A DNA stretch of 22,685 bases, from the IMG/VR virus record IMGVR_UViG_2734482779_000007. The stretch is one strand, 5' to 3'. A model generated the notes under the pieces. It saw only the letters and a list, made by a program, of their open reading frames with translations, was not told where the DNA came from and did not search any database. The DNA is from a virus. Lineage: Duplodnaviria; Heunggongvirae; Uroviricota; Caudoviricetes. Each line of letters opens with the position of its first letter. Within the stretch, counting starts at the first letter, position 1. Below are positions 7,570-21,629 of this stretch, one piece after another. Both the position numbers and the translations under genes were made by a program.

Positions 7570-8622
7570 TTAGCTGTCGGCGAACTTCAGGCCAGTGACC
7601 ATCGCGCACTTGCCATAGTCTTCAACGACATAAGCGTCATTGATGGACTGATAGGTGGCGATGCGGTTGTATTCCGGTTCGTCTTTCATCAGACGACGCA
7701 TTGAACCTTTTTGCCAGTAAATCGACAGGTTGTTGAACGAGGTGATCAGCATCGTTGCATCCGGGAAGAACGGCGCAAGGAACACGCCCAGCCCGCCAAT
7801 GGTGCGCGATGACAGGATGAGCTGCCCGGCAAGTAATTCCGCATTGGGATTCTGGCCGCTGATGCTGTTCAGCACGGGCAGACGCAGCGAGTTAAACAGG
7901 TTGCGCCCCATAATCACCACGAGGTCGTCAGCTTCCTTGTGCCATTCATCCAGCAGGGATGAACGCGCGTCCTGTACCAGTGCATCAGCGTTCGCATACT
8001 TACCCGCGTGCGCCACGGTGTTGTCCATGTTGCGGGAGGTCAGCGTCACGTCATTCATAACGCGCTCGCTGGCGTCGGTTCTGATGTGCTCCAGCCATCC
8101 CACGTTAACGTCCTGAAGCAGCTTGTTGGTGCTGAAGTTGGATTCATCCGCGTGAGACGTGCCGTTGAAACCGATCATGATGCGGTCAAGCGCCACCTGC
8201 CGGGCAATCTGTGCGCTGATGCGGGACTGAAAATCAGGATGTGCCGCCCAGGCATCAAGCTGCGGATATGAAATAAACGTGTCGTAGTTCACCTGTTCGC
8301 ACTGGTATTTGCGGTTTTTCAGATCAACCACGTTATTCGGGTTACGGCGTTTTGTGCCGTCATAACTGGTATTCGTGCGCGCAATCGGCCCGGTGGTATC
8401 CAGGAGGATTTTTTCGCCTTTCTGGTCGATCACGCCGATCACGTTAATTCTTTTTGTAAATTCGGTGCTTTCCTTTGAGGCGTTTTCAAAACGCTGCTGT
8501 ACCGAGGGTTCCACGGTAAATCGCGATACCAGTGCGGAAACCGGGATATTGTTAAGCGACGCCTGCTGCGCCATATAGCAACCCAGCTTGTTGCGGGTAA
8601 TATCTGACATCACCAGATTCAT
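7570..8622 (-). CDS. N: Major capsid protein N (P2 gpN-like)
   Basis: 350-aa ORF with ...FTVEPSVQQRF...KGEKILLDTTGPIA...YQCEQVNYDTFISYPQLDAWA...MIGFNG...LQDVNVGWLEHIR...DLVVIMGRNL...NLSIYWQKGSMRRL..., collinear with P2 gpN. AAGGAG SD before ATG 8622. Confidence 0.9.
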   Translation of the reverse strand: MNLVMSDITRNKLGCYMAQQASLNNIPVSALVSRFTVEPSVQQRFENASKESTEFTKRINVIGVIDQKGEKILLDTTGPIARTNTSYDGTKRRNPNNVVDLKNRKYQCEQVNYDTFISYPQLDAWAAHPDFQSRISAQIARQVALDRIMIGFNGTSHADESNFSTNKLLQDVNVGWLEHIRTDASERVMNDVTLTSRNMDNTVAHAGKYANADALVQDARSSLLDEWHKEADDLVVIMGRNLFNSLRLPVLNSISGQNPNAELLAGQLILSSRTIGGLGVFLAPFFPDATMLITSFNNLSIYWQKGSMRRLMKDEPEYNRIATYQSINDAYVVEDYGKCAMVTGLKFADS

Positions 8623-8645
8623 AAAAAATTTGCTCCTTTGTCTTA

Positions 8646-9482
8646 TCAGAAGTCAGCCAGCTGGTCGGAGGCTGCGCCCGTTGCGGTGAACCGATTCTGC
8701 GGATCGCTGTCCTGCGTGCGCAGTTTTTCCTTCAGTGCTGCCAGCTCTGTGGTCAGTAAAGTGATTTTCTGGCTGTCCTGCTGATGGCGGGTTTCCAGCA
8801 CATTAAAACGGTCGATAATGTCGGCCTGTGACGTTGCGACACCTTCCACCGCTTCCTGAATACGGGAGAAACTGGCGTCATCCGCTTTGCGGCCACGGCC
8901 AATAATCCCCATAACGCGGTTAAACCACTGGGTGCCTTCTTCCTGACGTTGTTCGGTGAGTTCGATAAGTTCTGACTCCATAGCGGCGGTAAACATCGCC
9001 ACGTCTCCCTGCTGACAGTTGAATGTCATCAGTTGCATACGTTGTTGTGCCGCAAAGGCCAGACGTTCCGTGCCCAGGCTGGCAGGGGTGTCGGTCATTG
9101 CCAGCCCGCGCAGGTAAGGGCCTCCCGTGATGGTTGACTGTGGTTCCAGCTCAATACTGGAGTAAATTTTTTTACCATCGTTAAGCAGGGACATCATGCG
9201 AGCGGTCGGCTCAATTTCGGCATACAGTGCCGTGCGACCTGCCAGCGGGCCATCGGTTATGTCTTCGGTGCTCAACCCCACAACATCGCCCATAGCGGAA
9301 AACTCGCTACCGGGGAGTGGTGACAGGATGTGCTCAATATTCACACGTGCACCATAAACGGACGGGTTATAACTGGTGGCGGCAGCTTTCAGCATGTCGC
9401 CGTTGATTTCGCGCCCGTCTGCCGTTACACCGGAGACAGCCACGCGAAACTTTTTGCGGGATGTCTTTTTTTCATTAGCCAT
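8646..9482 (-). CDS. O: Capsid scaffolding protein O (P2 gpO-like)
   Basis: ORF track 8646..9515. The in-frame ATG at 9482 is preceded by AGAGGGG and gives MANEKKTSRKKFRVAVSGVTADGREINGDMLKAAATSYNPSVYGARVNIEHI, matching P2 gpO MAKKVSKFFRIGVEGDTCDGRVIS. ATG 9515 has no SD. Confidence 0.85.
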   Translation of the reverse strand: MANEKKTSRKKFRVAVSGVTADGREINGDMLKAAATSYNPSVYGARVNIEHILSPLPGSEFSAMGDVVGLSTEDITDGPLAGRTALYAEIEPTARMMSLLNDGKKIYSSIELEPQSTITGGPYLRGLAMTDTPASLGTERLAFAAQQRMQLMTFNCQQGDVAMFTAAMESELIELTEQRQEEGTQWFNRVMGIIGRGRKADDASFSRIQEAVEGVATSQADIIDRFNVLETRHQQDSQKITLLTTELAALKEKLRTQDSDPQNRFTATGAASDQLADF

Positions 9483-12485: not shown

Positions 12486-12858
12486 ACTCTCCAGCTCCTG
12501 TATCAGTCAGATAATTTCACGACGCTTTCCTGCTGATTGCCATCATCGACAGTCAGACTCTTACGCAATCCCACCGCGTTGACTGCATGTTCTCGCCGTC
12601 TCAGTGCGATTTTGACGGCCTTACCTTTCACCCCATCAAATCAAAAGCCCTCACGTCTTTTTCACGCTCAGCGTGAGAAATACAGCCATTCTGTTGTATC
12701 TCTGCGACATCGTTCAGGGAATGCTATTTACCCCCTGAAACGCGGGCTGTTCCCCCGTCACTTGCGCGCAGAAAAAACGCGTTTTTTTGTGCATGCACGG
12801 ATCCCTGACGGATCCAGCCACCATGCGGGCCGGAAGGGTAAAAAGTCGTTCAAAAAAA

Positions 12859-12885
12859 TTGTGCAAATTTGTGCACTATTGTGCA
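12859..12885. repeat. Three direct repeats of TTGTGCA phased 10 bp apart
   Basis: TTGTGCA at 12859-12865, 12869-12875 and 12879-12885 (one helical turn apart), flanked by A7 upstream and hairpin AGGGCGAT / ATCGCCCT (12888-12911) downstream. Confidence 0.5.
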
Positions 12886-12923
12886 GAAGGGCGATGCGCG
12901 ATTATCGCCCTGGTTTGGCAGTT

Positions 12924-13130
12924 CTAAATACGTTTCACAATACCCACAAGATTGCCAGGTGACAGTTCTGCTGTGTGTTTAATATCGTCCACTATGTACG
13001 ATGCATGTTCACGGTTAATCGCATAGATATAAAATGAGTACTTCCGTTCATCTGCCATAAAGTCGACAGAAAATAATTTCCATGTACGCCCCTCGACTTC
13101 AACCTGTAACGGCATATTTATTCCGCTCAC
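12924..13130 (-). CDS. Hypothetical small protein (68 aa)
   Basis: ORF MSGINMPLQVEVEGRTWKLFSVDFMADERKYSFYIYAINREHASYIVDDIKH...; first codon GTG at 13130 is preceded by AAAGGAG. Last gene of the minus-strand small-ORF cluster before the cos region. Confidence 0.4.
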   Translation of the reverse strand: MSGINMPLQVEVEGRTWKLFSVDFMADERKYSFYIYAINREHASYIVDDIKHTAELSPGNLVGIVKRI

Positions 13131-13156
13131 GCATAGTCTCCTTTTGAAAATTCTAA

Positions 13157-13597
13157 TTAAATATTTTCGTTACGAAGCATGGCGGCGCGGCAGGCTTCAT
13201 CAACCATAGCTTCTACGTTTTCGAGAAGTACGTAACTGTACTGCTGCCCACTAACCCATTCTTTTCTGCGAGGTAATGCGCGTGGGTCAGATACAATAGC
13301 TCGCAAACGTTCCAGAACAGTTGGTACTGCTGGCGGCTCGCGATACAGCGAGATTACACGACGCGGGTCCGCATATTTATCTGGCGGACACTGAAATATC
13401 TCACCGAAACCATACTTCCTGACATCGCGCAGTTCCTCTTCATCAGTCCATGCCACCGGTTCTGCTTCCAGCGATGCCAGAGCAATCCGTGCCAGCTCTT
13501 CCGCTTCTTCTGCTGGCAGTACAACGTTGCTACCAGGTCCGTATGTTTCGCGCCACTGCTTGATTGTCAGCAGTCGCTCTTTGGTTATAGTTGTCAT
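13157..13597 (-). CDS. Hypothetical protein (146 aa)
   Basis: ORF MTTITKERLLTIKQWRETYGPGSNVVLPAEEAEELARIALASLEAEPVAWTDEEELRDV...; ATG overlaps upstream stop (ATGA). No recognisable domain. Confidence 0.5.
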   Translation of the reverse strand: MTTITKERLLTIKQWRETYGPGSNVVLPAEEAEELARIALASLEAEPVAWTDEEELRDVRKYGFGEIFQCPPDKYADPRRVISLYREPPAVPTVLERLRAIVSDPRALPRRKEWVSGQQYSYVLLENVEAMVDEACRAAMLRNENI

Positions 13598-13803
13598 TTG
13601 TTAACCCTCAAAACTTTATGCCCGGGCGCAAAAGCACGTGTTTTGTCTTTGCTTATTCGCCAGCCATCCTTACGCGCCTCTTTTGCACAACCAGCCCATG
13701 ACGTACCGATATACTCTCCGAAGTCTGGCGACTTATATTTGCCATCTGTACACTGGAGGCAATCACAATAGAGATGCATGGTGTAACTTGCAGCGATAGC
13801 CAT
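13594..13803 (-). CDS. Hypothetical small Cys-rich protein (69 aa)
   Basis: Within ORF 13594..13824 the ATG at 13803 is preceded by AAAGGAGAG and gives MAIAASYTMHLYCDCLQCTDGKYKSPDFGEYIGTSWAGCAKEARKDGW (C-x-C-x2-C...C, possible metal site). Confidence 0.45.
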   Translation of the reverse strand: MAIAASYTMHLYCDCLQCTDGKYKSPDFGEYIGTSWAGCAKEARKDGWRISKDKTRAFAPGHKVLRVNK

Positions 13804-13804
13804 A

Positions 13805-13978
13805 TCACTCTCCTTTGATACCAATGTTTACAGTCTGGCAAGCTTCTCTGAGCACCCAGTCAACAGCGTCTTTCCATGCTCCGGTTTCGGTTGGCGGATT
13901 CTCACGCTTTACCAGTTCGCCGTTCTCAGTCCATGCCAGCTTGATGTTGGTGGAGCCGTCGTCGATACAAATTTTCAT
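13805..13978 (-). pseudogene. ParM/StbA-like N-terminal fragment (57 codons), probable remnant
   Basis: Unlisted minus-strand ORF, ATG 13978 preceded by [43 protein letters not shown]... begins like plasmid R1 ParM ([21 protein letters not shown], phosphate-1 motif) but stops after 57 codons. Confidence 0.35.
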
Positions 13979-14012
13979 GTCGCTTTTCCTTATGTTGATT
14001 AATTAATCGTTT

Positions 14013-14037
14013 ACGGGATTCTGAAATCCCGTTTTTT
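14013..14037 (+). terminator. Plus-strand intrinsic-terminator-like hairpin 1 downstream of gene A
   Basis: Stem ACGGGATT (14013-14020) / AATCCCGT (14025-14032), loop CTGA, followed by T6 (14032-14037) on the plus strand. Confidence 0.5.
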
Positions 14038-14048
14038 CCTGTTTTGTG

Positions 14049-14077
14049 CGCGCTTCAAATATCGCTGCGCGTTTTTT
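14049..14077 (+). terminator. Plus-strand terminator-like hairpin 2 overlapping the A stop codon
   Basis: Stem CGCGC (14049-14053) / GCGCG (14067-14071), 13-nt loop, followed by T6 (14072-14077). Confidence 0.35.
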
Positions 14078-16877
14078 GCTCATTTACGGGATTCGTGAGT
14101 CCCGTTTCTGTCTGTTTTTTGTTTTCACTGGTCAGGCCACCCCGCAGCAGGTCTGCTTTGCGGCGGGCGCGTTCAGTGGTTTCACTGATTCTCTGTGCGT
14201 GCTCTGTGTCGCGGATGGCGCTCAGCATGTCAGAAAGCACGGTAACGGGTGTTTTCATGGTGTTCTGGTCCTGCTGAAGTGTGGATGCCAGGCGTGCGGC
14301 GGCTTCAGGGTCTGATGCCCCCAGCTGCGCCAGATAGCTGGCGACCGGGTTATGGCGGATCTCCGTGCTGCTTACGCCGTGATTACGGCTCAGGCGTTGC
14401 CAGAGCTGCGTGATTCGGCTGTCCGGGCGGGTATCCGGTTTGCGTACAATTTCAAATCCCTGCGGTGCAATGATGCTGCCGTCAATGTACAGACTGCCGC
14501 CCCGTAACAGGTGCTGCATCTGTTGTTCACCGATATGCAGGCCGAGAGATTCAGCAGACTCCCGCCATTCTTTAGCGAGTAATTCGTGGTTATCAGGCAA
14601 AGGCCGCTGCTGTTTGCGGCTCTGTGTCCAGCTCTGCATTTCATCACTGCTGTTTTTTGCCTGTTTGTCACGAAGCGAACGCATCAGCGCCCGGCGTTCG
14701 TGCCGTTTCAGTGAGCGCATCCATTCGTTCACTTCAACGCCGTCAGGGAGCTGCGGCCACGGTGCTGGCCGTTCTTCCGGCTGTTCTGTCCCGTTGTTGT
14801 CCGTTTCCTGTACACGGGGACAGTTATTGCCACGAGTCCAAGGGGCGGCAGGGCCGCCCTGAAGGTCAAAACCATTTTCGCGGGTGCTGTCTTCCGCTTC
14901 CGGTTTACGTCTTACCAGCTTCCAGTTATCCGGATGCGTGCACACACGGGAGGATTCCCCGATGAGTGGTGACCAGATCCCGTAAATCTGTACGCTCTGT
15001 TCACCGTAATCGTTCAGCTCATCTGCGAGGTCGTAGGCGGTGCGAATCAGGTAGTCTTTGCGTGGAACAAGTACGCCGCCCTGTTTCTCTATGTAGGTGG
15101 CAAAACATCCGGCATCAGCGGCAGCGAGTACCGCATCCATTGCGTCATCCTTCAGCTGTTGCGGGCCTTCCGGGTTGCGTGCCATCTGGCTGGCAAGGCG
15201 ACGCAGTTCACGCCACACCTGACGGGAGGGGATACCAAAGAACTGGAACTGGCGGACACGGTGAAGGCGCGCCCAGCCGATGGCGCGTTCCACGCTCTCG
15301 GCCATTGACTTTCCGGTTTCGTGGTCAACGCGTGGCTTGCCCGTTTTCGGGTCGGTGCCATCCACGGCGCGGCTGTCCAGGTTCTTTCCGATGTAGGTGG
15401 CGATGTAGCTGGTTGGCGTGCCTTTTGAGCCGTCTACGTACTCCGCCTTAAAACGCGGAGTAATATCATTGCCCAGCTCGTGGCGGTCTTCCTGAATGGC
15501 AATATCACGGGTGTGGGACACAATGGTGTCGATTTCTTCCGGATGAGCAAAGACCATCATATGCCAGTGCACGGTGCCGTCATGGTGAGGCTCCACCGTG
15601 CGGATGCCATACCAGCGCAGGCCGTCGCGGTTCAATTTCTTGCGGACCGCTGCAAAAAACGTGTTAACCAGGTAATCGCTGGAGTCGCGCATGGTGGCCC
15701 CGTTCCATTTGGGATTCGGATGACCGTTCTCTGTTGTGGCGTGGTATTTTGACGGGCAGGTGACAGTCAGAAACACCGCTTTGTCGCCACGGGCTTCGGC
15801 CAGAAGTTCCAGCCCCTTCATGGTGGCCATCATTTCTGCCTTACGGTGAACCGGGTTACTTACTCCCGCGTAATACACTGTCTCGAGATCAATCGTGAAC
15901 CCGTCTTCGTTTTCCAGCATGAAACTTTTCAGGAAGTCGCGTGTTTTCTCGCGCTGTGCGCGAAATTCACTTAATGCATCCTGACTCAGATAGGGGGATG
16001 TTTTTCTGGAAACCAGACAGGCAGCGCGGAGTTGTTCCTCTCTCCATTCGCAACGTAAAAGCCACAATTTGCGTTTCCACCAGTCCGCACAGGTCAGGCG
16101 AAGGATTGCACCCGGCAGCAGTTCTGTGTCCGGTTCGTTCCTCCGGTCTTTGTCTGTTGTCAGTGCGTCATAATGCGGAGGCACTGTGTGCAGATGTAAC
16201 GCCATGCGAGCCAGCAGCTGATACGCCTTCAGCGTTATATCCATGGTCAGCTCGCCATCGGTCGCGCCAAAGCCATCGCAGAGTTTTTCGAAGGTGCTGC
16301 TGAACATTGCCGCCGTCATGACGGCCAGTGTCTGTATCTGGTGTTTGTTGAGCTGCGGCAGGTAAAGTAAATCGTCCAGACGTTCACGTCCGGCAAGGGA
16401 GCGATAACCCGGAGTCAGCCAGCGTCCGTCAGTGCGGGCCAGACGTTCCAATATTTTGCGCAGGGTTCCGCGTGCATAGCGTTCCGCCTGCCAGCTCTTT
16501 TTGCCTTTCCGGCGATCGGCTTCCTGTTTTTTGCGCAGGAAGGAGAGGTGGCGAATAAGCGGATCGCGCAGATAGGACGGCAGCAGGCGCAGCGAGGCCA
16601 TGGCTTCATCCACCGCACCGCGTGCCTGTTTTCTGGCTTCTCTGGCCAGTGTGATGGTTTTGTCCTGCTTTTCCTGTGCGTCCAGGCTTTTATTAATCAG
16701 GTTGCCCAGCGGTGTGGCGGAGAACGCCGCGTCAGCCATTTCCTGGCGGCGCTCGTTCTCTGCCCGGTAGGCATCCAGCCAGGAGGAAAGTGCGGATTCA
16801 GGTGCGGGGATCCCCGTTCCTTCACGTCCTACTGCGTGGCGCGGTTGTTGCCAGTCCCTGATGTACTCTGCCGTCAT
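14055..16877 (-). CDS. A: Replication initiation endonuclease A (rolling-circle HUH initiator, P2 gpA family)
   Basis: 940-aa ORF, the largest in the early operon. Contains ...GIRTVEPHHDGTVHWHMMVF... (HUH-type metal site) and ...TSYIATYIGKN... (catalytic Tyr region) as in P2 gpA, but is longer than P2 A (~761 aa). Confidence 0.85.
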   Translation of the reverse strand: MTAEYIRDWQQPRHAVGREGTGIPAPESALSSWLDAYRAENERRQEMADAAFSATPLGNLINKSLDAQEKQDKTITLAREARKQARGAVDEAMASLRLLPSYLRDPLIRHLSFLRKKQEADRRKGKKSWQAERYARGTLRKILERLARTDGRWLTPGYRSLAGRERLDDLLYLPQLNKHQIQTLAVMTAAMFSSTFEKLCDGFGATDGELTMDITLKAYQLLARMALHLHTVPPHYDALTTDKDRRNEPDTELLPGAILRLTCADWWKRKLWLLRCEWREEQLRAACLVSRKTSPYLSQDALSEFRAQREKTRDFLKSFMLENEDGFTIDLETVYYAGVSNPVHRKAEMMATMKGLELLAEARGDKAVFLTVTCPSKYHATTENGHPNPKWNGATMRDSSDYLVNTFFAAVRKKLNRDGLRWYGIRTVEPHHDGTVHWHMMVFAHPEEIDTIVSHTRDIAIQEDRHELGNDITPRFKAEYVDGSKGTPTSYIATYIGKNLDSRAVDGTDPKTGKPRVDHETGKSMAESVERAIGWARLHRVRQFQFFGIPSRQVWRELRRLASQMARNPEGPQQLKDDAMDAVLAAADAGCFATYIEKQGGVLVPRKDYLIRTAYDLADELNDYGEQSVQIYGIWSPLIGESSRVCTHPDNWKLVRRKPEAEDSTRENGFDLQGGPAAPWTRGNNCPRVQETDNNGTEQPEERPAPWPQLPDGVEVNEWMRSLKRHERRALMRSLRDKQAKNSSDEMQSWTQSRKQQRPLPDNHELLAKEWRESAESLGLHIGEQQMQHLLRGGSLYIDGSIIAPQGFEIVRKPDTRPDSRITQLWQRLSRNHGVSSTEIRHNPVASYLAQLGASDPEAAARLASTLQQDQNTMKTPVTVLSDMLSAIRDTEHAQRISETTERARRKADLLRGGLTSENKKQTETGLTNPVNEQKTRSDI
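14086..14120 (+). terminator. Plus-strand terminator-like hairpin 3 inside the 3' end of gene A
   Basis: Stem ACGGGA (14086-14091) / TCCCGT (14100-14105) followed by a T-rich tract ending in T6 (14115-14120). TTTACGGGATTC is a direct repeat of hairpin 1 (14010-14021 vs 14083-14094). Confidence 0.4.
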
Positions 16878-16883
16878 AGTGAT

Positions 16884-17249
16884 TTACTTCGTCATGCCAT
16901 TCAGGGTGTCGCGGCAGACTGTAGCCAGCCGCTGAATTTCCAGCACGGTGTCTTCTGTGTCGGCATGGCGATGTGTGATGCGGATGCTGTCGGCAATCAC
17001 ATCGACGATTGCAGAGGATGGGCGCTGGTAAATGCCAATAACGGACGGGGTGCCACCTTCAATGCGGTAAAGCCTGTAATTTCCCTCGTTGCTGTCAATC
17101 ATGTAGCGACCATCAATAACAATCTTTCCGTCAGCGAGCTGCGGTACAGGCAGGGATTTCAGGTACATGTCATAACGTTCACGCACGCGAACGGCAAGAT
17201 CACGCTCTGTGTTGAGCAGGTATTCAAGAAAGTCGTTGGCGAGAATCAT
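16884..17249 (-). CDS. Hypothetical early protein (121 aa)
   Basis: ORF MILANDFLEYLLNTERDLAVRVRERYDMYLKSL..., AGAGGA SD, 6 bp upstream of A. No recognisable domain. Confidence 0.5.
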   Translation of the reverse strand: MILANDFLEYLLNTERDLAVRVRERYDMYLKSLPVPQLADGKIVIDGRYMIDSNEGNYRLYRIEGGTPSVIGIYQRPSSAIVDVIADSIRITHRHADTEDTVLEIQRLATVCRDTLNGMTK

Positions 17250-17321
17250 TGCGGCAATCCTCTGGTTACAGATGTGCGAAGGCCTCCCGCCGCAAGGTGC
17301 AGGAAAGGCCCGGAACAGGAA

Positions 17322-17552
17322 TTAATGGAGTTTGTTTTGCTGCTGGATGAGCTGCTGAAGCTCGCGCAGATCATCCGCCAGATAACTGAAAACAGCGGAT
17401 GAGTAGAGGTTTGAAAGTTCGCAGCTACGCTCATGCAGCATATTGATGTGCATGATTTTAGCGACGCGGAATGCGCGGGAAAGTCTGCGGTTGATTTCAG
17501 TCTGGATGTGACGACGCTCCGCGATAGCGCGGTGCTGTTTGCGGTTTGCCAT
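17322..17552 (-). CDS. Hypothetical small basic protein (76 aa)
   Basis: ORF MANRKQHRAIAERRHIQTEINRRLSRAFRVAKIMHINMLHERSCELSNLY... (Arg-rich N-terminus, possibly nucleic-acid binding). AAGAGG SD lies within a repeated 9-mer. Confidence 0.45.
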   Translation of the reverse strand: MANRKQHRAIAERRHIQTEINRRLSRAFRVAKIMHINMLHERSCELSNLYSSAVFSYLADDLRELQQLIQQQNKLH

Positions 17553-17730
17553 GATATGTGGCCTCTTGTAGTAAGTTGTGAAAACTCACCATCCAGAGCT
17601 GCGAAACTGTGGGTGGCGAGACGTACGAGGTTCGCAGTACCGGCTACAAGAGATCCCGGCCCGACCGAAGTCGGCCCCGTACGCCCCGCCATAATTCTGA
17701 CGCGAAAAAAACGTGGCAATACAGTACGCA

Positions 17731-17752
17731 CAAAAAAACCGCTGGCGCGGTT
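17731..17752 (-). terminator. Intrinsic terminator (minus strand) downstream of the SPFH cassette
   Basis: Stem ACCGC (17738-17742) / GCGGT (17747-17751), loop TGGC, followed on the minus strand by U7 (plus-strand A-run 17732-17738). A second U7 lies at 17705-17711. Confidence 0.5.
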
Positions 17753-17888
17753 GTGCGCTCTTGTAGTCAGCAGGCTGCGAAACCCGGCACCCGTTTTATG
17801 AGGTGCATCGAAAATGTAACCTGACTGATTGCGGCATGGCAAGCGGTTTTTTTGTGAGAACGGCATACTAAAAAATCCTGATACTGCT

Positions 17889-17913
17889 CCGGCCAGCGGT
17901 TTGCACTGGCCGG
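17889..17913 (-). other. GC-rich hairpin immediately 3' of the SPFH gene
   Basis: Stem CCGGCCAG (17889-17896) / CTGGCCGG (17906-17913), 9-nt loop, starting 7 nt after the TAA stop. No adjacent U-run. Confidence 0.35.
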
Positions 17914-17919
17914 GTGTCA

Positions 17920-18750
17920 TTACTTCACGGGAACGAACGGAACAGCGGTGTTACTGGTCATGTATTGCGGCAGCGTGCCGTTCCATTTGTTGATCGCTTC
18001 CAGCTCCATAACGCCGGGATTCTGGCGCAGAGCTTCGCCGCGTAAACGAATGGCGTCGGCTTCAGCCTGGGCTTTTGTGCGAATGGCATCAGCCTGTCCG
18101 GCAGCTTCTGCGCGCAACATGTTGGCTTCTGCTTCGCGCTGTTTTACTTCCTGTTCGCGTTGCAGGGTTTTCTGGTTTGCCGTGACTTTGGCGTTAATGC
18201 TGTCGATAACGGTTGGCGGATATTCCGGTTTACCGACATAAGAGAGGCTCATTACCTGAATGCCGATGGGTGTCATTTCTGCCTGAATATCTTTAAGTGC
18301 TGAATCCAGCAGTTCAGACTTGCCACCGTCGATGAATTTATCGGTGGTCATTTTGCTGGCCAGTCGGTTGAGTGCGTCGGCGATCTTCTGGCGCAGGTCA
18401 GTGTCGGTAATGTCGTCCACGCCTTTGCGGTAGGTCTGAAACACCGTGGTAACTTTGGATGGATCAACTTTGTAGGCCACGCCGATGTGATAGCCGATGG
18501 TTGTGCCGTCACTCATCTGGAAGTTGAACGGCTCATCGTAAGTCTTCATTTGTTTGAAAGTCGGGAAGATGTAAACCTCTGTATTCCAGCCTGTCCAGTA
18601 GCGGCCAACGCCAACTACTTCGCCGACGCCTTTGTCGTCGCCCAGTTTGTTGACTTTGATTCCCACATTACCTGGCTCAACGCGATCGCAACCAACCAGC
18701 AGGATGGCGGCAAAAAGCGGGAGAATCTGAAAGAGTTTGAATTTCTTCAT
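17920..18750 (-). CDS. SPFH/Band-7 (prohibitin/HflC-like) domain lipoprotein
   Basis: 276-aa ORF. N-terminus MKKFKLFQILPLFAAILLVGC is a lipoprotein signal with lipobox LVGC. Core ...VEPGNVGIKVNKLGDDKGVGEVVGVGRYWTGWNTEVYIFPTFKQ... fits the SPFH fold. C-terminus is an A/E/Q/R-rich predicted coiled coil (QREAEANMLRAEAAGQADAIRTKAQAEADAIRLRGEA) as in HflK/HflC/QmcA. ATG overlaps upstream stop (ATGA). Confidence 0.8.
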   Translation of the reverse strand: MKKFKLFQILPLFAAILLVGCDRVEPGNVGIKVNKLGDDKGVGEVVGVGRYWTGWNTEVYIFPTFKQMKTYDEPFNFQMSDGTTIGYHIGVAYKVDPSKVTTVFQTYRKGVDDITDTDLRQKIADALNRLASKMTTDKFIDGGKSELLDSALKDIQAEMTPIGIQVMSLSYVGKPEYPPTVIDSINAKVTANQKTLQREQEVKQREAEANMLRAEAAGQADAIRTKAQAEADAIRLRGEALRQNPGVMELEAINKWNGTLPQYMTSNTAVPFVPVK

Positions 18751-18950
18751 TGCTTGATTTCCTTGATGTACTTACTGAAAAGGCGAACAACGCCTGCCGG
18801 GTACAGCATGGCAATGAAAATGCCCAGCAATACCAGGAAGGAGCTGTCTGATGAAATCATTCGGGGGAGTAGTCCTGCATACAGAATGAAAGAGACGAGG
18901 ACGCATACCAGCGCCCACATGTATGCGCGAAACCAGGTCTTTTTGTTCAT
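18747..18950 (-). CDS. Small two-TM membrane protein (67 aa), partner of the SPFH lipoprotein
   Basis: ORF MNKKTWFRAYMWALVCVLVSFILYAGLLPRMISSDSSFLVLLGIFIAMLYPAGVVRLF... with two hydrophobic helices; ATGA coupling on both sides. Confidence 0.6.
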   Translation of the reverse strand: MNKKTWFRAYMWALVCVLVSFILYAGLLPRMISSDSSFLVLLGIFIAMLYPAGVVRLFSKYIKEIKQ

Positions 18951-21231: not shown

Positions 21232-21326
21232 GTGATAATCTCCCTGTTTGGGGTATTTCTTGCGACGGATGCCCCAAATCAAACTCATTTGTATAAACAT
21301 TAATACAGACGTTGGAGAATTGCAAC
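21232..21326. promoter_or_regulatory. Immunity switch region (divergent Pe/Pc promoters and candidate operator)
   Basis: 95-bp gap between cox and C. Inverted repeat TTTGGGGTAT (21247-21256) / ATGCCCCAAA (21269-21278), 9 of 10 complementary, 12-bp spacer. Candidate minus-strand promoter TTGCAA (21320-21325) -17 nt- TAATGT (plus 21297-21302). Confidence 0.45.
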
Positions 21327-21629
21327 ATGCGTATGACTATTGGAGAGCGCATAAAAATCATGCGTGAAAGCGAGAGACTTACTAGCCTCCCGGATACAGC
21401 AAAAATGCTTGGTTTAAACCGTGATGCTCTGTGGAGATATGAAAGCGGTAAAACTATCCCTAATGCTGAAGTAATTGAGCAAATACTAAACAACCCCAGA
21501 TTTGAGAAATATGCGTTGTGGTTTATGACTGGAAAAATTGCGCCTGAATCCGGGCAGATAGCTCCGGCTCTCGCACACTATGGGCAAGAGCCAACGGACT
21601 TACCCCCATCCGAAAGGAAAATTGGTTAA
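21327..21629 (+). CDS. C: Immunity repressor C (P2 C-like)
   Basis: ORF track starts at TTG 21312; ATG at 21327 follows GGAG. MRMTIGERIKIMRESERLTSLPDTAKMLGLNRDALWRYESGKTIPNAEVIEQILNNPRFEKYALWFMTGKIAPESGQIAPALAHYGQE matches P2 C (...LWFMTNQIAPESGQIAPALAHFGQ...). Confidence 0.85.
   Translation: MRMTIGERIKIMRESERLTSLPDTAKMLGLNRDALWRYESGKTIPNAEVIEQILNNPRFEKYALWFMTGKIAPESGQIAPALAHYGQEPTDLPPSERKIG

Follow-up and report, generated by a model that had tools for sequence, protein, structure and literature searches.

We show that the interval 17553-17919, inside the early operon of a P88-like prophage (P2 family, Xuanwuvirus), contains a so far unannotated cassette of an established phage RNA switch, in which IsrK, a putative decoy RNA, is followed by a C4/CI antisense RNA. 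The kind of element is not new: Rfam has curated families for both C4/CI and IsrK, and phages P1, P7, P4 and Gifsy-1 provide experimental precedents. Very probably the copy works as an RNA immunity cassette of the P4/P1 type, in which C4 blocks translation of an epsilon-like gene, with probable polarity on replication gene A, and IsrK serves as a decoy.

The C4 RNAs of P1, P7 and P4 are cut from a transcript and act in trans. The a/b nomenclature of their elements, which is used here, and the mechanism of a translation block followed by polarity both stem from the P1 literature. The P2-like phage family is usually described with a C/Cox switch only. In P4, the CI RNA pairs with seqA and seqC and shuts off the replication genes; IsrK has been described as a structural homologue of the P4 seqA RNA and in trans activates the downstream anti-repressor (PMC4825925). 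Full repression of P1 ant requires C4 RNA (PMC8198154).

Methods

The window is the whole stretch of 22,685 nucleotides that was analysed. RNA families were assigned on the minus strand with Rfam covariance models, by score relative to the gathering threshold. C4 loci were collected from IMG/VR by a pattern search anchored on TATGGCGG. The covariation set comprised 50 C4 loci with distinct loops, and non-cognate pairs of loop or junction and target served as control. Duplex energies were computed on the accessible segment; RNAcofold, which is without loop-loop kissing, kept C4 and its targets folded separately.

Results

Both RNA families are matched above their gathering thresholds and over the full length of the models (Table 1). 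The IsrK-family RNA is composed of a 5' hairpin, a second hairpin with b1, a single-stranded a1 and a terminator, and in the C4-family RNA a closing stem encloses the UUCG hairpin and the specificity hairpin. The minimum free energy (MFE) structure of C4 agrees with the Rfam consensus, a long closing stem around two hairpins with single-stranded loop and junction. This three-way junction folds with -47 kcal/mol (z = -4.18), and in an alignment of 51 sequences compensatory changes were found at 13 of the 21 consensus pairs of its stems. The isrK segment alone is unremarkable in fold stability (z = -0.89).

Table 1. Coordinates of the RNA elements, signals and genes in the window
Feature	Coordinates	Strand	Basis and details
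Promoter-like site for isrK	17842..17813	-	Consensus scan, 9/12 matches; -35 TTGCCA 17842..17837, 18-nt spacer, -10 TACATT 17818..17813
IsrK-family small RNA (P4 seqA RNA equivalent)	17806..17732	-	Rfam RF01394, 66.7 bits (gathering 50), model 1-77 of 77
b1, upstream target of C4 junction	17775..17781	-	UUCGCAG; within 10-mer 17774-17783
a1, upstream target of C4 loop, inside IsrK	17758..17766	-	CUACAAGAG; third 9-mer copy
Rho-independent terminator of IsrK	17730..17752	-	Stem 17752..17737 then U7; 3' end of Rfam isrK model
Second promoter-like site	17719..17691	-	Consensus scan, 9/12 matches; TTGCCA-17-AATTAT
C4/CI-family antisense RNA	17696..17609	-	Rfam RF01695, 81.1 bits (gathering 45), E = 8.7e-15, model 1-87 of 87
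C4 hairpin 1, UUCG tetraloop	17674..17661	-	Fold and alignment; 4 of 5 pairs changed on both sides in 23-25 of 51 sequences
a', 12-nt loop of C4 hairpin 2	17644..17655	-	GAUCUCUUGUAG; includes inverted 9-mer 17644-17652
b', single-stranded C4 junction	17631..17637	-	CUGCGAA; complementary to b1 and b2
b2, downstream target of C4 junction	17599..17605	-	UUCGCAG; begins 4 nt past C4 3' end; within 10-mer 17598-17607
a2, downstream target of C4 loop	17562..17571	-	CUACAAGAG(G); overlaps Shine-Dalgarno AAGAGG of 76-aa gene
76-aa gene, P4 epsilon homologue (helper derepression protein), putative regulated target	17322..17552	-	Pfam PF25738 Derepression, 29.5 bits (gathering 27)
121-aa gene (orf121), next in operon	16884..17249	-	phrog_3237 match
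Replication gene A (GpA endonuclease, 940 aa), last gene of unit	14055..16877	-	Pfam Phage_GPA, E = 1.6e-129

An earlier, sequence-only reading had described the interval as a structured, non-coding 370-bp leader, a riboregulatory module of the minus-strand transcript or else a small RNA. A novel leader it is not, since it corresponds to isrK and C4 above gathering. The small-RNA option proved right, with two known RNA genes matched, and the riboregulatory interpretation is largely borne out. The UUCG hairpin and the intrinsic terminator which that reading had reported are likewise present.

The Rfam model of the other upstream target type, c4-a1b1 (RF03163), remained below threshold at the locus (16.6 versus 46.7 bits), though complements a1 and b1 are present. 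The a1/b1 function is carried here by an isrK-type RNA in place of the c4-a1b1 type; at several other loci both models are matched. In 40 of 50 loci C4 is preceded, within 75 nt, by a hairpin with a T-run.

We also considered and rejected a protein-coding reading of the interval (a 224-aa frame running across it and plus-strand ORFs), for which the one point in favour was a sub-threshold Phage_ASH match; no ORF in 17553-17919 is credibly supported. This Pfam family also matches a reading frame overlying the CI/C4 RNA gene in P4, and we therefore regard Phage_ASH as modelled on a translated RNA gene. Public records either leave the cassette unannotated or wrongly list it as an 'ash family' pseudogene or as an ORF on the reverse strand.

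The repeats on which the targets lie are above chance. The 9-mer CTCTTGTAG has three exact copies in the window, at 17563-17571 (+), 17644-17652 (-) and 17758-17766 (+), with an expected count of 0.04; none of 100 dinucleotide shuffles of the 22.7-kb window contained three or more. The 10-mer GCTGCGAAAC has two copies in the window, at 17598-17607 and 17774-17783, with an expected count of 0.13, and two or more copies arose in one of 100 shuffles. Exact counts and shuffles thus bear out a triplicated 9-mer with an inverted middle copy and a duplicated 10-mer, both of which had been noted before. What had been missed is that GCTGCGAAAC supplies the second half of a two-part target, its partner being CUGCGAA in the C4 junction.

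At the start of the 76-aa gene, the minus strand from 17571 to 17563 reads CUACAAGAG followed by G and overlaps the Shine-Dalgarno (SD) sequence AAGAGG, which is located 9 nt before the ATG at 17552; the overlap of a 9-mer copy with this SD had been correctly recognised. The inverted copy was thought to sequester the SD through a long-range helix. It does pair with the SD copy, but it is not the arm of a simple long-range helix, being instead the exposed 12-nt loop of C4. The remaining copy, proposed as a competitor because it lies upstream of the terminator, is indeed a competing target, namely a1 in IsrK. Together b1 and a1 of IsrK form an almost continuous 27-nt complement to C4. The predicted duplex energy of the accessible C4 segment is -37.0 kcal/mol with IsrK (b1 through a1) and -33.9 kcal/mol with the leader.

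IMG/VR contains at least 50 different C4 loop sequences, each with its own matching flanking targets. Across the 50 loci, a Watson-Crick complement of at least 8 nt to the cognate loop was found upstream in 46% and downstream in 60%, compared with about 1% for non-cognate pairs. Complements of at least 7 nt to the cognate junction were present upstream in all loci (50/50; 100% versus 1.3% non-cognate) and downstream in 90% of the 50 (versus 2.1% non-cognate). An ORF was called after a2 in 43 loci, and in 38 of these the start codon follows a2 by 5-14 nt; in the other five the offset is -2, 1 or 1, or the ORF is sub-threshold at 31 aa. Eight P88-like loci have nearly identical scaffolds, and variation is essentially confined to a1, b1, a', b', b2 and a2, which change together in a compensatory manner, with seven loop types and three junction types. 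The loop sequence at the locus studied here is CUCUUGUAG, and loop type CUUUGGUUG is that of locus L002. According to this covariation, specificity is determined by the C4 loop and junction, whose sequences define RNA immunity types. For a bipartite kissing interaction, the P88-like loci amount to a very clean series of natural compensatory mutations, which can be used directly in specificity-swap design.

Three copies within 210 bp, one of them inverted, next to a gene for a basic 76-aa protein, might also suggest DNA-level sites, i.e. operators or iterons bound by this protein, by the C repressor or by GpA. We regard this as extremely unlikely. Covariation makes the copies reverse complements of an RNA loop, and their strand and order are fixed relative to the conserved RNA structure; this covariation fits RNA-RNA pairing rather than a DNA operator, and the earlier suggestion that the 76-aa protein binds the 9-mer finds no support. 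Furthermore, the protein is a homologue of P4 epsilon, for which inactivation of the helper repressor has been reported (PMC8628076). When a C-repressor operator was searched for by comparing the Pe/Pc operator region with the isrK promoter region, no shared k-mer of at least 7 nt was found.

Two promoter-like sites are candidates for the transcription of the cassette. Between the predicted -10 hexamer of the first and the 5' end of isrK (17806) the distance is 7 nt. Its two hexamers are invariant in the eight P88-like loci, in which the sequence upstream of approximately 17855 represents three unrelated contexts. The -10 hexamer of the second site is the conserved 5' flank of the C4 model (AAUUAU). 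A start about 7 nt downstream of it would fall inside the C4 closing stem, so this is probably not the relevant promoter, and the site is probably not functional for C4. It is the weak promoter-like element noted previously, at 17719..17691. The site at 17842..17813, directly 5' of isrK, is the better candidate as a predicted promoter. The P4 promoter upstream of isrK/seqA is called PLE.

Downstream of the cassette, the 76-aa protein shows 29% identity to P4 epsilon over 66 aa (BLASTP, E = 1e-8), and P4 epsilon itself scores 170 bits on the PF25738 Derepression model. On the strength of the 29% identity we consider the 76-aa protein a putative anti-repressor homologue. P4 epsilon acts by binding the repressor protein and is not known to act on DNA. 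The next gene, orf121, would be co-regulated with the 76-aa gene, judging by gene order; similarity of orf121 to P4 orf151 was looked for and not found. Gene A is probably subject to polarity, if P4 and P1 are a guide. Anti-repressor types are frequent among the genes that come first behind C4 modules; the 41 examined include Bro-N (6), Derepression (5), Rha (2), P22_AR_N (1) and AntA (1). With GpA, C repressor, cox and integrase, the window belongs to a P88-like P2-family phage and not to a P4-like satellite, for which alpha primase, sid, delta and psu would be typical.

Discussion

The most probable course of events starts at the conserved predicted promoter, from which a 75-nt IsrK RNA, as defined by the family match, would be made and would end at its own predicted terminator. 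Read-through transcripts would carry C4, which by analogy with P1 and P4 may be excised as a stable species of about 80 nt whose 5' end would be generated by RNase P. Folding and family structure show that a 12-nt loop, a', and a 7-nt junction, b', are exposed in C4 as single strands. These could pair colinearly with a2 and b2 on the epsilon-like leader, as the observed complementarity suggests. Because a2 covers the Shine-Dalgarno sequence, translation of the 76-aa anti-repressor homologue would be blocked. Rho might then act on the untranslated mRNA and end its transcription, as happens in P1 and P4, and orf121 and gene A would stay off. IsrK contains both targets, b1 and a1, in an almost continuous complement to C4 and is for this reason assigned a decoy role. 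As a decoy or anti-antisense RNA it could act in cis within read-through transcripts and, as may be extrapolated from Gifsy-1, in trans as a short RNA. The ratio of IsrK to C4 would decide the expression of the epsilon-like gene and of gene A. Transcript ends, processing, trans action, Rho polarity and Hfq binding in this phage we infer from homology; Hfq binding of IsrK and its trans activation of anti-repressor translation have been shown only for Gifsy-1 (PMC4825925).

In the MFE structure of the 271-nt read-through transcript, the IsrK a1/b1 segment is paired with the C4 loop and junction, and a2 is in a local hairpin. The SD may therefore be limited by cis structure too, a2 being partly buried in this leader hairpin. 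Such a fold is what a purely cis-acting leader switch would look like, in which isrK pairs with C4, the SD is sequestered locally, short IsrK opens the structure in trans and C4 is never a free trans repressor. This is the model of the sequence-only reading and is close to that for Gifsy-1, whose genetics were read by the authors as a cis structural switch opened by IsrK rather than a C4 trans repressor; over-expression of the C4-equivalent RNA did not relieve IsrK toxicity there (PMC4825925). For the present locus we nevertheless consider it rather unlikely. C4 is a very stable autonomous fold (-47 kcal/mol) with flanks conserved as in the processed P1 and P4 RNAs, and a processed species of about 80 nt, STnc1160, has been detected in Salmonella. 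Moreover, a2 and b2 covary with the C4 loop and junction as strictly as a1 and b1 do, which is needed only if C4 pairs with the leader.

In a P4-style explanation, control of termination would be the primary effect: C4 on nascent a1/b1 would stop transcription at or near the IsrK terminator, C4 on a2/b2 would cause a Rho-dependent stop, and the translation block would be secondary. The P4 CI RNA has been described as a termination factor acting via seqA and seqC, and the layout here is P4-like, with the terminator 5 nt past a1. Against this, a2 overlaps the SD and the start codon follows at the 5-14 nt seen in most loci with a called ORF, which argues that translation is the direct target; nor does an ORF start after a1 in the window, unlike in the P4 leader. 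As the primary effect, termination control seems to us very unlikely, but it overlaps with the block of epsilon-like gene translation that we favour and is not exclusive of it.

Among the known systems closest to the cassette is P4, where isrK (8692..8615) and C4 (8507..8420; CI RNA/seqB) are matched by the same families in the same order. P4 shares the bipartite targets: b2 comes directly after the C4 RNA, and a2 covers an SD that precedes an ATG by about 9 nt. It also has a promoter with TTGCC in its -35 just upstream of its isrK/seqA match, similar in position and -35 to the promoter-like site of the window. The common order is promoter, seqA/IsrK RNA, CI/C4 RNA, seqC at the SD, epsilon-family gene and replication gene. 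In P88, too, isrK is matched at the same relative position. The window differs from P4 in that it represents a P2-like helper-type phage and not a satellite, and in that its replication gene encodes GpA, a rolling-circle nickase, instead of the alpha primase-helicase. Furthermore, a2 lies on the SD of the epsilon-like gene, whereas in P4 it lies on that of an ORF starting at 8364, upstream of epsilon; the spacer between isrK and C4 is 35 nt compared with 107 nt in P4; and there is no leader ORF after a1.

With the IsrK/orf45 (STnc1160)/AnrP system of Salmonella Gifsy-1 (Hershko-Shalev et al. 2016, PMC4825925) the window has in common an IsrK sRNA followed by a terminator, which is leaky in Gifsy-1 and predicted in the window, and preceded by a promoter of its own, for which the window has a candidate; complementarity of about 30 nt between IsrK and a downstream C4-like segment, and an anti-repressor-type gene downstream. 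The IsrK:C4 helix in the read-through MFE structure is similar to 'structure A', the inactive form that experiments revealed in Gifsy-1 (PMC4825925). Gifsy-1, however, is lambdoid, and its regulated protein is a different anti-repressor, AnrP, reached via a coupled 45-codon ORF overlapping the C4-like RNA; in the window it is an epsilon-like protein that is targeted, without need of an ORF over C4. The immI region of P1 and P7 (c4 - icd - ant) likewise has a C4 RNA with two recognition elements, for which targets lie upstream as a1 and b1 and, at the ribosome-binding site, downstream as a2 and b2, and its control of an anti-repressor is a second immunity layer beside the main repressor. The downstream genes are icd-ant in P1 and the epsilon-like gene, orf121 and gene A in the window, and the upstream target is of the P1-type c4-a1b1 model in the former, of isrK type in the latter. 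Whereas the P1 operon is also repressed by C1, the Pe/Pc k-mer search revealed no operator-like sequence in the window.

The position of the cassette before an epsilon-type anti-repressor homologue and a replication gene in P2-like phages implies a second immunity layer like that of P1. It is conceivable, although we put it forward tentatively and hold it to be less probable than not, that P88-like P2-family phages possess a second, RNA-based immunity layer derived from or shared with P4-type satellites, in which C4/IsrK gates the epsilon-type anti-repressor and initiator A, with at least seven immunity types whose reassortment does not follow the C repressor. In that case this large group of phages would have a bipartite immunity like that of P1. 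The group is present in about a quarter of complete E. coli genomes; an 801-bp query (the cassette with flanking gene ends) found similar sequence in 1416 of 5426. The switch could then explain the inducibility of P88-type phages, and cross-regulation between helper and satellite would be possible where specificities match. In a search that was not exhaustive, none of 12 IMG/VR matches to the loop and junction specificity of this locus lay on a non-P88 scaffold, as such cross-talk would have it; all 12 are P88-like, each with its own a1 and a2. C4 loop types reassort freely relative to C-repressor types. For the epsilon allele the linkage to C-repressor type is partial: it goes with one type in 5 of 5 loci, yet it is found with another type too.

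An isrK-C4 RNA cassette with a bipartite target

Scanned against Rfam, the whole window gave exactly two matches above the gathering score, isrK and the C4 antisense RNA, both full length, on the minus strand and within the interval 17553-17919 (see table). We regard the identity of the element as an isrK-C4 cassette as practically certain; it is an unannotated representative of RNA families that are known, as is their mode of action. RNA annotation at the cassette is absent from public records: the P88 record has a hypothetical ORF on the reverse strand at this position and RefSeq E. coli an 'ash family protein' pseudogene. No description of the cassette in a P2-like phage setting was found in the literature searched.

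Folded alone, C4 adopts the Rfam structure (-47 kcal/mol, z = -4.18). Its first hairpin is the UUCG hairpin, and the second presents a 12-nt loop, GAUCUCUUGUAG, with the inverted 9-mer as its core. The IsrK 3' end is the minus-strand intrinsic terminator. Hairpin, terminator and a weak promoter-like site had been picked out by the sequence-only reading and are confirmed.

Features of the cassette in the window
Feature	Position	Strand	Remarks
Promoter-like site TTGCCA-18-TACATT	17842..17813	minus	consensus match; end 7 nt ahead of isrK 5' end
isrK (RF01394)	17806..17732	minus	66.7 bits (gathering 50)
b1 UUCGCAG	17781..17775	minus	within IsrK
a1 CUACAAGAG	17766..17758	minus	within IsrK
Terminator stem	17752..17737	minus	followed by U7
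Weak promoter-like site	17719..17691		
C4 antisense RNA (RF01695)	17696..17609	minus	81.1 bits (gathering 45)
a' loop	17652..17644	minus	within C4
b' junction CUGCGAA	17637..17631	minus	within C4
b2	17605..17599	minus	leader; first nt 4 nt past C4 3' end
a2	17571..17563, plus G·U pair at 17562	minus	leader; over SD

As that reading had also claimed, the 9-mer CTCTTGTAG is triplicated (17563-17571 (+), 17644-17652 (-), 17758-17766 (+)), GCTGCGAAAC is duplicated (17598-17607 and 17774-17783; expected count 0.13), and a 9-mer copy overlaps the SD AAGAGG, 9 nt upstream of the ATG at 17552. The 9-mer has no further copy in the window (expected count 0.04; at least three copies in 0 of 100 shuffles). 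Both repeats are genuine and non-random, and together they form a single bipartite target that occurs twice. The targets are ordered b then a and C4 carries a' then b', as required by antiparallel pairing. For the accessible C4 segment, the predicted duplex with IsrK is an almost continuous 27-nt helix (-37.0 kcal/mol), and that with the leader consists of two blocks flanking a local hairpin (-33.9 kcal/mol).

Covariation of C4 with its targets

A search of IMG/VR anchored on the conserved C4 positions, with no constraint on the loop, yielded 114 C4 copies. They comprise 51 distinct loops, counted over all matches including the window and the E. coli locus L002; 50 of these have full flanks. 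Watson-Crick complements of at least 8 nt to the cognate loop are present upstream in 46% and downstream in 60% of these 50 loci, as against about 1% of non-cognate loop/flank pairs. Every locus (100%) has an upstream complement of at least 7 nt to its cognate junction, and 90% have one downstream (non-cognate pairs, 1.3% and 2.1%). In 38 of the 43 loci with a called ORF, a start codon follows the downstream loop target at a distance of 5-14 nt; a hairpin with a T-run separates the upstream targets from C4 in 40 of 50, and double compensatory changes are found at 13 of 21 consensus stem pairs in the 51-sequence alignment.

An alignment of eight P88-like loci provides the sharpest evidence in this comparison: between about 17855 and the start codon the scaffold hardly differs, and a1, b1, a', b', b2 and a2, six blocks in all, vary in concert. 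As DNA of the transcribed strand, the loop a' is CTCTTGTAG in the window, CTTTGGTTG in L002 and CTGTAGTTG in P88; a1 and a2 are both CTACAAGAG, CAACCAAAG and CAACTACAG, respectively. Likewise, junctions CTGCGAA, TTGAGAA and GTGGAAA go with b1/b2 TTCGCAG, TTCTCAA and TTTCCAC. By the criterion set in the sequence-only reading, lack of the repeats in related prophages that share this gene order would have spoken against regulation; the repeats are present there and covary. The riboregulatory logic guessed from the raw sequence was largely correct, and the element is a genuine regulatory one. The suggested binding of a protein to the 9-mer, or a DNA operator, is contradicted by the reverse-complement covariation; no k-mer of at least 7 nt is shared with the Pe/Pc region. 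A purely cis structural switch fits the folding results, as the minimum free energy structure of the 271-nt read-through RNA pairs the a1/b1 segment of IsrK in cis with the C4 loop and junction, but it does not account for the covariation of a2/b2 with C4, which is as strict as that of a1/b1.

Types of C4 loop and junction combine freely with C-repressor types and epsilon alleles among the P88-like loci (L002, L127-L249 and the window, with its C repressor at 21312-21629). The window's loop, for instance, occurs with three different C repressors. C type 'MRMTIGERIK...' has the window's epsilon allele in 5/5 loci, and this allele is also found with another C type.

Comparison with known systems and proposed mechanism

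In P1 and P4, RNase P processes C4/CI, and a translation block is followed by Rho polarity. Like the window, P4 contains both Rfam families in the same order (isrK 8692..8615, C4 8507..8420); pattern search places b1 (GTGAGAA) at 8667..8661 and b2 at 8415..8409. Read by eye, the P4 isrK segment holds the loop complement TTCACAGG, and a2/seqC is ATTCACAGGAGG, 8 nt ahead of ATG 8364; exact 8- and 9-mer searches of P4 for CTTCACAG(G) gave no match. In P4, epsilon and the replication gene lie further downstream of the cassette, and a2/seqC (at 8364-8385 (-)) covers not epsilon's own SD but that of an unannotated ORF upstream of epsilon, beginning at ATG 8364. In the P4 RefSeq record, the RNA gene is still overlain by an annotated protein of 137 aa, 'cI transcriptional repressor'.

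Processing of the leader yields the P4 CI RNA, which pairs with seqA and seqC and keeps the replication genes from being expressed; the P4 seqA RNA has a structural homologue in IsrK (PMC4825925). In Gifsy-1, IsrK activates downstream anti-repressor translation in trans, and the C4-equivalent segment gives rise to a processed RNA of about 80 nt, STnc1160 (PMC4825925). In P1, C4 RNA is required for full repression of the anti-repressor Ant (PMC8198154).

Beyond the family membership, structure, flank complementarity, SD overlap, covariation and P4-like layout demonstrated here, we propose that the putative promoter at 17842..17813 would start IsrK and read-through transcripts, from which C4 would be cut out as a stable RNA. 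By pairing with b2/a2, C4 would keep the epsilon-like gene from being translated, and polarity would silence orf121 and gene A. C4 may be titrated by IsrK or, in cis, by the a1/b1 segment, and its loop and junction may set immunity specificity. A termination-first, P4-style mechanism overlaps with this model. Identity and mechanism taken together, the explanation is in our view quite probable; for the mechanism in its details we lean towards the scheme with reserve.

Genomic context and the putatively regulated gene

The window is a P88-like prophage (Xuanwuvirus, P2-family), and its cassette region is 91% identical to phage P88. Of 5426 complete E. coli genomes, 1416 match an 801-bp query (17200-18000), and in 891 of these at least 80% of it is covered at one place. 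The minus-strand gene order is C/cox switch, small accessory genes, SPFH lipoprotein, isrK-C4, 76-aa gene, 121-aa gene and replication gene A (940 aa). The stretch 17920-18950 (-), directly upstream of the cassette within the early operon, holds the SPFH/Band-7 lipoprotein gene (276 aa) and a gene for a small membrane protein (67 aa, phrog_1130 'moron'). Past the SPFH stop there is a GC-rich hairpin, CCGGCCAG...CTGGCCGG (17910..17886), without adjacent U-run. The left cassette boundary is sharp near 17855, and upstream of it the P88-like loci show three unrelated contexts, the SPFH gene end (window) or two other genes; this suggests that the isrK-C4-epsilon unit is mobile as one module. Downstream of gene A, P88 has ParM and a partition protein; the window instead has, at 12537-14055, three small ORFs (13594..13824 (-), 13157..13597 (-), 12537..12962 (+)), none with a Pfam match.

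The 76-aa protein passes Pfam PF25738 'Derepression' (29.5 against a gathering score of 27; P4 epsilon, 170 bits) and is 29% identical to P4 epsilon over 66 aa (E = 1e-8), pointing to an anti-repressor. A recognisable anti-repressor type is the first downstream gene in 15 of 41 C4 modules (Bro-N 6, Derepression 5, Rha 2, P22_AR_N 1, AntA 1). In L129, L152, L157, L170, L150, L169 and other loci, the first ORF after C4 encodes a small DUF3077 or DUF6124 protein (3 of 41 loci each) or, in several cases, a family-less protein of 50-100 aa. These take the C4-controlled place that Bro-N, Rha, Ant or epsilon anti-repressors fill in other modules, and all are candidates for unrecognised anti-repressors.

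Concerning Pfam PF10554 'Phage_ASH', it matches frames over the C4/CI RNA in the window (17563-17818 (-)), P4 (8329-8521 (-)) and L002 (5135-5398). Its match to the obsolete 'cI gene product' ORF of P4 (59.7 bits) falls exactly on the CI RNA, and the window frame spanning isrK and C4 gets a sub-threshold 22.5 bits; PGAP calls 'ash family protein' pseudogenes over the C4/CI region. PF10554 appears to model the conceptual translation of this RNA region, not a protein, the true epsilon family being PF25738. In a large survey of P4-like satellites (PMC8628076), 'epsilon' was scored by PF10554, a marker that probably tracks the RNA immunity locus.
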